Below, one piece after another: positions 3,302 to 3,473 of a stretch of 64,000 bases of DNA. The position numbers and the translations under genes are program-made. Under the pieces are notes generated by a model. That model had not been told where the DNA came from and did not search any database. It worked only from the letters and a program-made list of their open reading frames with translations. The stretch's first letter is position 1. The number at the start of each line of letters is the position of its first letter. The stretch comes from Escherichia coli (lineage in GTDB: Bacteria > Pseudomonadota > Gammaproteobacteria > Enterobacterales > Enterobacteriaceae), in NCBI RefSeq assembly GCF_003334355.1, contig NZ_QOWP01000004.1. One strand, written 5' to 3'.

Positions 3302-3367
3302 CCTTTTCCCTCCTTCGGTGAATGCGCTGAAAACGGTTTATTCCAGCCGTTTCAGGGTACGCCTGAT

Positions 3368-3390
3368 AATTTGCATTTTAAATACCATTT
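3368..3390 (-). promoter_or_regulatory. NsrR-like operator upstream of yeaR-yoaG
   Basis: aatttgcattttaaataccattt: partial 11-1-11 inverted repeat resembling the NsrR consensus (AAnATGCATTT n AAATGCATnTT), about 70-90 bp upstream of the yeaR start. Confidence 0.35.
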
Positions 3391-3473
3391 ATTGGTTACT
3401 TTTTAGCACCATATCAGCGAAGAATCAGGGAGGATTATAGATGGGAAGCCCGCGACAACGCGGGCTGAAAGCA

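Follow-up and report, generated by a model that had tools for sequence, protein, structure and literature searches.

The yeaR-yoaG operon of Escherichia coli is controlled by both NarL and NsrR (PMC4959519, PMC7082413), and its repression by NsrR and activation by NarL have been described since 2007. In nitrate-grown CFT073, yeaR and yoaG were up 160- to 168-fold and were among the strongest nitrate-induced genes, and yeaR is "known to be regulated by NsrR" according to the same paper, which cites Lin et al. 2007 (PMC5320621). Table 4 of that paper contains 27 NsrR 11-1-11 sites in CFT073, and the yeaR site is given there as AAATGGTATTTAAAATGCAAATT (Mehta et al. 2015, PMC5320621). The NarL-RNAP cryo-EM complex published in 2024 was built on the yeaR promoter from -59 to +1. 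At this promoter, the NarL 7-2-7 site is TAACCAATAAATGGTA; its centre is at -43.5, and an intrinsically weak -35 element follows directly downstream (PMC10853779). The yeaR promoter is also a standard part for nitrate and inflammation biosensors. Rodionov 2005 does not mention yeaR.

We analysed a stretch of 64,000 nucleotides of E. coli DNA (the window), whose positions are used throughout. Positions 3302-3473 are the leuE/yeaR intergenic region and match MG1655 base for base, and the MG1655 coordinate within them is the window coordinate plus 1876647. On the minus strand, leuE (leucine exporter, 3474-4112, stop codon 3474-3476) lies upstream of the yeaR-yoaG operon (2756-3301), in which yeaR (2942-3301) and yoaG (2756-2938) are driven by the yeaR promoter. 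The MG1655 locus tags are b1798 for leuE, b1797 for yeaR and b1796 for yoaG, all on the minus strand. A query of 1.5 kb around the region had matches, annotated as leuE, yeaR and yoaG, in 5422 of 5426 complete E. coli genomes, and the median number of places per genome was one. The list of open reading frames, the genome matches and the MG1655 annotation all agreed with the gene names given in a preliminary description of this DNA. The intergenic region runs from the leuE stop to the yeaR start, and its elements have to be read on the minus strand. Our results indicate, with a probability of about 90%, that positions 3302-3473 hold two separate and ordinary minus-strand elements, the yeaR-yoaG control region and a hairpin at the 3' end of leuE. 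The first element is almost certainly the yeaR-yoaG promoter with its known NsrR/NarL composite control region.

The plus-strand 23-mer aatttgcattttaaataccattt was found at exactly 3368-3390. It is the exact reverse complement of the published yeaR site (PMC5320621). Read on the minus strand it is the 11-1-11 inverted repeat AAATGGTATTT-A-AAATGCAAATT, which occupies -43 to -21, with its centre at -32. To score it, a palindrome-symmetrised NsrR matrix was made from 16 distinct ChIP-seq-peak sites of Table 4 in PMC5320621, with yeaR excluded. The 23-mer scored 21.6 bits with this leave-yeaR-out matrix and ranked first among 63,978 window positions, and the runner-up scored 11.2 bits. None of 200 first-order-Markov random 64-kb sequences matched the yeaR score. 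The yeaR 23-mer is a typical-to-good member among NsrR sites, since the 16 training sites scored 13.1-30.6 bits with a median of 17.9.

The preliminary description had proposed an NsrR-like repeat here without any tools and had placed it to the base. The matrix score and the identity with the published site (PMC5320621) bear this out, and the same holds for the proposed NO-responsive control of yeaR-yoaG through the 23-mer, which is already the published yeaR NsrR site. The view that it consists of one good and one weaker half-site is right when mismatches to the ideal (ytfE) palindrome are counted, but not by the matrix, which gave 11.3 bits for the distal half and 10.4 bits for the proximal half. 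The 23-mer is an already published NsrR operator of yeaR-yoaG, and only the conservation and the leave-one-out score are additions here.

The geometry of the promoter was back-calculated from the NarL anchor at -43.5, including the -35 and -10 hexamers and the start. The published NarL site TAACCAATAAATGGTA is the reverse complement of window positions 3383-3398 and covers -51 to -36 on the minus strand (sequence and position from PMC10853779). Since this site is centred at -43.5, the yeaR transcription start is placed at the G at 3347 on the minus strand (MG1655 1879994), within 1 nt in either direction. A G at +1 is in line with the G-initiated transcript of PMC10853779. The inferred weak -35 hexamer TTTAAA (3377-3382, -35 to -30, mean column identity 0.92) lies wholly within the NsrR operator. 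It is followed after a 17-nt spacer by the inferred -10 hexamer TACCCT (3354-3359, -12 to -7). The Shine-Dalgarno sequence AGGAGG of yeaR was read at 3309-3314 on the same strand. The centre of the 23-mer computed from the NarL anchor, -32, agrees with the one that Lin, Bledsoe and Stewart (2007) reportedly gave for the yeaR NsrR operator. The promoter reportedly has a further protein site, namely a Fis site that overlaps the NarL site (Squire et al. 2009).

The NsrR operator and the NarL site have 8 bp in common (3383-3390), all of them in the distal NsrR half. The early reading of the operator was correct, but it missed this context, that is, the covered -35 hexamer and the 8-bp overlap with NarL. 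No promoter was found when 2900-3700 was scanned with a sigma-70 consensus, which is expected because the promoter is activator-dependent and has weak hexamers. The yeaR NarL site itself has 4 mismatches to the strict consensus TACYYMT-NN-AKRRGTA. An inverted repeat near the yeaR start, CTGAAACGG-N9-CCGTTTTCAG at 3327-3355, was considered as a leader hairpin and dropped, as RNAalifold found no consensus structure for it and its 5' arm in E. coli lies upstream of the inferred +1.

This arrangement suggests how the two regulators may work together. The operator match, its statistics, the geometry and the conservation were obtained here, and the dependence on NsrR and NarL is taken from the literature. 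Without NO, a dimer of [Fe-S]-NsrR would sit on the operator at 3368-3390. As the operator includes the -35 hexamer and has 8 bp in common with the NarL site, we infer that bound NsrR would then block both sigma region 4 of RNA polymerase and NarL by steric exclusion. NO would nitrosylate the NsrR cluster, and NsrR would leave the operator. With nitrate or nitrite, phospho-NarL at -43.5 would recruit RNA polymerase through the alpha C-terminal domain.

The conservation of the promoter was then compared among species. A YeaR protein scan with one genome per species gave 26 usable loci from Escherichia, Citrobacter, Salmonella enterica subsp. arizonae and diarizonae, and Silvania, and leuE was immediately upstream of yeaR in 22 of them. 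In an alignment of 23 intergenic regions (Escherichia, Citrobacter, Salmonella), the sole strongly conserved non-coding block was TAACCAATAAATGGTATTTnAAATGnAnATT...GCGTACCCTG. The mean column identity was 0.99 for the NarL site despite its mismatches to the consensus, with 14 of 16 columns invariant, and 0.92 for the whole NsrR site. The distal NsrR half reached 1.00 (11/11 columns invariant) and the proximal half 0.87. The -10 hexamer had an identity of 0.94, with T1, A2, C5 and T6 invariant in all 23 sequences. The block from the Shine-Dalgarno sequence to the ATG had 0.87 and the 5' UTR 0.71. The spacer that separates the leuE hairpin from the regulatory block (3399-3447, minus strand) was hypervariable, with only 0.49 across genera. 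Of 5426 E. coli genomes, 5111 had the 45-bp block that extends from the -10 hexamer through the NarL site (4939 of these at an identity of at least 99%), and only 1738 had a recognisable copy of the adjoining 49-bp spacer.

The best NsrR match was at the same place in all 23 aligned promoters and scored 12.5-23.8 bits. In both sampled subspecies of Salmonella, the proximal half was weak (1.4-5.2 bits). The perfect conservation of the distal NsrR half could stem from NarL alone. The 11 invariant columns coincide with the proximal NarL heptamer, and the middle of the 23-mer is taken up by the -35 hexamer. One may thus propose that the 23-mer is conserved only through the proximal NarL half-site and the -35 hexamer, and that NsrR control is indirect or located elsewhere. 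We consider this very unlikely. The proximal half falls into the normally unconstrained spacer between the -35 and -10 elements, yet its identity is 0.87 as against 0.49 for the neutral spacer, and the substitutions in it remain compatible with NsrR. The yeaR score is also 10 bits above that of any other position in the 64 kb, and the literature ascribes an NsrR operator to this promoter (PMC5320621, PMC4959519).

The loci that have lost part of the NarL site are informative on the same point. In three Citrobacter loci (L007, L015, L024) another gene is upstream, and the breakpoint has replaced the distal NarL heptamer. These loci have kept an NsrR site of 20.7-21.3 bits, 81-82 nt from the ATG. 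The Silvania promoter, which is otherwise unalignable, has a 23.6-bit NsrR site, AAGTCGCATTTTAAATGCATTTT, 73 nt from its ATG. NsrR sites of 20.7-23.6 bits at the same distance from the ATG, in the Silvania promoter and in loci without the distal NarL half, argue against conservation through NarL only. Because the Citrobacter loci without this NarL half and the Silvania locus keep their NsrR sites, NsrR control is, more than NarL control, what stays constant in yeaR promoters from genus to genus.

The data on binding in the cell are less uniform. CFT073 NsrR ChIP-seq gave no peak at yeaR, which would fit an indirect NsrR control, and the authors regarded this as a probable false negative (PMC5320621). 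An earlier K-12 NsrR ChIP-chip study is cited for ygbA and tehA, and not for yeaR, in the same passage of that paper (PMC5320621). The literature on the physical binding of NsrR at yeaR is thus mixed, and the functional assignment of the operator goes back to the mutational work of Lin, Bledsoe and Stewart in 2007.

The second element is a stem-loop, which in the minus-strand RNA reads GCCCGCG-UUGU-CGCGGGC and lies at 3448-3465, or -101 to -118 relative to the yeaR transcription start. It has a 7-bp stem and a 4-nt loop (gcccgcg-acaa-cgcgggc), with an optional extra A-U pair between 3447 and 3466, and its predicted energy is about -16 kcal/mol. The hairpin begins 8 nt past the leuE stop codon (3474-3476). 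In the preliminary description it is a GC-rich hairpin just past the leuE stop without a T-run. The structure is present as described and the T-run is indeed missing on both strands (3 T in the first 8 nt in the leuE sense, no terminator called), but the coordinates had been off by one, at 3449-3466.

The hairpin was found to be conserved as a structure. Its orthologues had predicted energies of -14 to -20 kcal/mol in every species. With a nine-pair model, 95.9% of cells were paired in the 23-sequence alignment, and the pairing fell to 40-52% when the 3' arm was slid by 1-3 columns. Three pairs had changed on both sides: 39/58 from G-C to A-U, 44/53 from C-G to U-A, and 38/59. None of 500 shuffles reached the pairing or the covariation score of the hairpin. 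The arms had identities of 0.88-0.93, as against 0.55 for the loop, 0.64 for the spacer between the stop and the stem and 0.49 for the downstream spacer. This pattern suggests selection on structure.

Such a hairpin might also be a chance inverted repeat without function. About 2.4 GC-rich hairpins of this kind are expected by chance per 64 kb (2.4 +/- 1.7 at random), and the window holds 8 distinct 7-bp ones (10 hits, two of them nested duplicates). It is conservation, not bare occurrence, that makes the leuE hairpin real. Compensatory changes have occurred across three genera while the loop and both flanks diverged, and the hairpin always lies 5-10 nt after the leuE stop. A chance origin is thus effectively refuted by the covariation test, and we give it hardly any weight.

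The location of the hairpin, -101 to -118 relative to the yeaR transcription start, also raises another reading, in which the sequence is not an RNA structure but a palindrome in double-stranded DNA to which a protein binds, for instance a nucleoid protein or a regulator of yeaR acting from upstream. The core CCCG...CGGG is invariant in 23/23 sequences, as a protein site might be. The compensatory pair changes and the variable stem length and loop speak for selection on structure rather than for base-specific recognition, and the published minimal scaffold of the yeaR promoter spans only -59 to +1 (PMC10853779). The hairpin is absent from four loci whose upstream gene is not leuE, though the yeaR promoter is present there. 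A protein-binding palindrome is highly improbable on these grounds. Because the hairpin is missing where leuE is not upstream while the yeaR promoter remains, it belongs to the 3' end of leuE and not to the control of yeaR.

Two other identities for this hairpin were considered and rejected. It is not a REP element: the palindrome has its sole copy in the 64-kb window here, the surroundings have a median of one occurrence per genome, and there was no Rfam match. The Rfam search covered 2600-4300 at E <= 1 and returned no family. The last leuE codons can also pair with the hairpin's 3' arm, and in E. coli this longer alternative fold has the more favourable energy (-23.7 kcal/mol). The fold was dropped, as its partners are not conserved in Citrobacter and its 5' partner lies in a translated region.

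Whether the hairpin resembles an intrinsic terminator was judged from its stem and from the tail behind it. A stable GC-rich stem-loop is present on the sense strand after leuE, as in an intrinsic terminator. The U-tract is lacking in E. coli, with 3 T in the first 8 nt past the stem in the leuE sense. No terminator was called in a scan of 2900-3700, which is expected because the hairpin lacks a U-tract. We do not file the hairpin as a canonical intrinsic terminator, since in this genome the stem is there and the U-tract is not; it is an unannotated but ordinary gene-end stem-loop. In Citrobacter species, 2-6 T follow in the first 8 nt past the stem. Two orthologues, those of Citrobacter sp. 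Awk 4 (L010) and C. braakii (L022), pass the scan for a terminator stem with T-tract when read in the leuE sense. The tail after the stem is TTCCCATC in E. coli and TTTAATAT in C. braakii. A d'Aubenton-Carafa-type score, which is not calibrated to current energy parameters, was borderline in Escherichia (-8 to +17).

Because these Citrobacter orthologues pass as terminators, the comparative data point first to the stem of an intrinsic terminator. We lean slightly towards the reading that the hairpin is the intrinsic-terminator stem of leuE, whose U-tract has probably decayed in Escherichia. A literature search for a leuE terminator gave nothing relevant. The leuE 3' end has no entry in the supplements of the Term-seq study of Adams 2021 (PMC7815308) or of the SMRT-Cappable-seq study of Yan 2018, where leuE was possibly too poorly expressed.

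The preliminary description had suggested an RNA stability element or a Rho-dependent site, and this is kept as a rival, behind the decayed terminator stem to which the comparison points first. Here Rho would end leuE transcription further downstream, 3'-5' exonucleases would trim the transcript back, and the stem-loop would be only a protective 3' end. The negative terminator scan and the missing U-tract (3 T in 8) in E. coli fit with this, as does the conservation of the stem by covariation while the tail is not conserved. The 49 nt past the stem (3399-3447) are pyrimidine-rich and G-poor on the sense strand (C 13, G 7, T 17). Rho-dependent transcripts are reportedly trimmed back to protective 3' stem-loops (Dar and Sorek 2018). 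This candidate rut stretch is short (49 nt; C 13, G 7) and runs into the yeaR promoter. With only about 50 nt from the stem to the yeaR regulatory block, release by Rho would fall inside the yeaR promoter or the gene. The Citrobacter orthologues with T-rich tails, which pass as intrinsic terminators, suggest that intrinsic termination is ancestral. We regard the Rho-dependent reading as possible though rather unlikely, and return to the decayed intrinsic-terminator stem. With such a stem, the hairpin would most likely be a weak terminator, a 3' end that resists exonucleases in the leuE mRNA, or both. It would thereby limit how much transcription runs on into the yeaR promoter, which lies about 100 bp further down.

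The two elements may be connected in a more speculative way, which we consider improbable. The leuE hairpin might be a deliberately leaky terminator, in which the stem was kept by compensatory selection and the U-tract lost in Escherichia, and the overlap of NarL and NsrR might be an obligatory either/or switch. If the terminator is leaky in this sense, leuE transcription would cross the NsrR/NarL-controlled yeaR promoter. This would lead to an NsrR-independent expression of yeaR-yoaG or to promoter occlusion, and the gene of a leucine exporter would be coupled to a nitrosative-stress operon. If the switch is of the either/or type, the Citrobacter variants without the NarL half would be pure NO sensors. 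Where PyeaR is used as a "nitrate-only" sensor, it should be kept in mind that even the minimal fragment (-59 to +1) carries the NsrR operator. The discovery value of the region is small. The practical gains include a quantitative leave-one-out score for the operator and the assignment of the unannotated hairpin to the leuE 3' end.

Compared with intrinsic terminators, the leuE hairpin shares the GC-rich stem of 7-9 bp, the loop of 4-6 nt and the location a few nt past the stop codon. Its Citrobacter orthologues also have the T-rich tail, but the E. coli copy differs from intrinsic terminators in having no U-tract. Protective 3' stem-loops of Rho-terminated transcripts likewise lie at gene ends without a U-tract and are followed by a C-rich and G-poor stretch. 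In contrast to these stem-loops, no leuE 3' end was found in the Term-seq (PMC7815308) or SMRT-Cappable-seq supplements.

For the promoter, the nearest relatives are the NarL-dependent and FNR-independent promoters (yeaR, ogt), with which it shares a single 7-2-7 site directly next to the -35 element. Two NarL sites are required at ogt, whereas one suffices at yeaR, where it is overlapped by NsrR. With the yeaR-yoaG NsrR operator of E. coli K-12 (Lin 2007; Mehta et al. 2015, PMC5320621), the 23-mer is the same object, with no difference. With the operators of ytfE, hcp, hmp and ygbA, which are bound by NsrR of the Rrf2 family, the yeaR site shares an 11-1-11 repeat resembling AAGATGCATTT-N-AAATGCATCTT. 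It likewise overlaps core promoter elements, and with 21.6 bits it is above the median. Unlike these four operators, the yeaR site was not recovered by the CFT073 ChIP-seq (PMC5320621). It also differs from them in sharing 8 bp with a NarL site, by which repression and activation are interlocked.

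The stretch that separates the leuE hairpin from the NarL site (3399-3447) was hypervariable, also within E. coli. By megablast, this spacer was recognisable in only 1738 of 5426 E. coli genomes, and the adjoining 45-bp operator block in 5111. The spacer allele of E. coli E69 (L002 in the YeaR protein scan) looks unrelated.

The region upstream of yeaR was also changed in three Citrobacter loci of the scan, from Citrobacter sedlakii (L007), a Citrobacter sp. MAG (L015) and C. amalonaticus (L024). The gene upstream of yeaR in these loci is not leuE but an open frame of ~445 aa. 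The breakpoint of this rearrangement falls within the NarL 7-2-7 site (locus region ~1395-1431), so that the distal heptamer was lost, and a 21-bit NsrR site is retained. These promoters may be natural NO-only variants.

Within E. coli, an IS1A insertion inside the leuE-yeaR-yoaG stretch was found in several genomes (H1-H7, matches of the 1.5-kb query; e.g. NZ_CP104112.1), and the query match was in two pieces. This suggests that leuE is the gene interrupted by IS1A, because a separate 'LysE family transporter' fragment was annotated as well in H2-H7. One further locus of the scan (L028) was assigned to Alkalicoccobacillus porphyridii, a Bacillales assembly. It is a 234-bp contig with a very low coverage of 0.8 (NZ_VLXZ01000426.1), and encodes a YeaR fragment with 95% identity to E. 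coli YeaR. This fragment is almost certainly enterobacterial read contamination.

When the last leuE codons were folded together with the hairpin (3448-3500, minus strand), the MFE structure preferred a longer alternative helix (-23.7 kcal/mol, z = -2.4), in which the coding-region GCCCG...GGCGACGC is paired with the 3' arm of the leuE hairpin. This helix is probably fortuitous, since its pairing partners are not kept in Citrobacter. The inverted repeat CTGAAACGG-N9-CCGTTTTCAG (3327-3355) spans the inferred yeaR transcription start, and in E. coli its 5' arm lies upstream of this +1. Citrobacter carries a different repeat, CAGCGA...TCGCTG, at roughly the same place, and RNAalifold gave no consensus structure for the repeat region.

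The ORF list and the comparison with MG1655 also showed that dgcP (diguanylate cyclase DgcP, b1794) is split into two plus-strand ORFs, 940-1644 (234 aa) and 1686-2093 (135 aa), because a GGG run at ~1609-1611 is one G short relative to MG1655. The split probably reflects either a sequencing error or a frameshift that has made dgcP a pseudogene.

On the other side of the operon, a stem-loop, GATGGCGCA-ATTTC-TGCGCCATC, lies past yoaG on the minus strand (2718-2740; region 2708-2740). Its sense strand continues with GC and eight A, with no T. In neither direction does the T8 run lie on the side that a terminator needs. The 40-aa ORF at 2620-2742 and UTI89_C1993 are candidate counterparts for comparison with c2201, an annotated 40-codon ORF of strain CFT073. 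A 142-fold co-induction of c2201 with yeaR-yoaG has been reported (PMC5320621), which would fit read-through past yoaG, provided that c2201 corresponds to the ORF that follows this gene.
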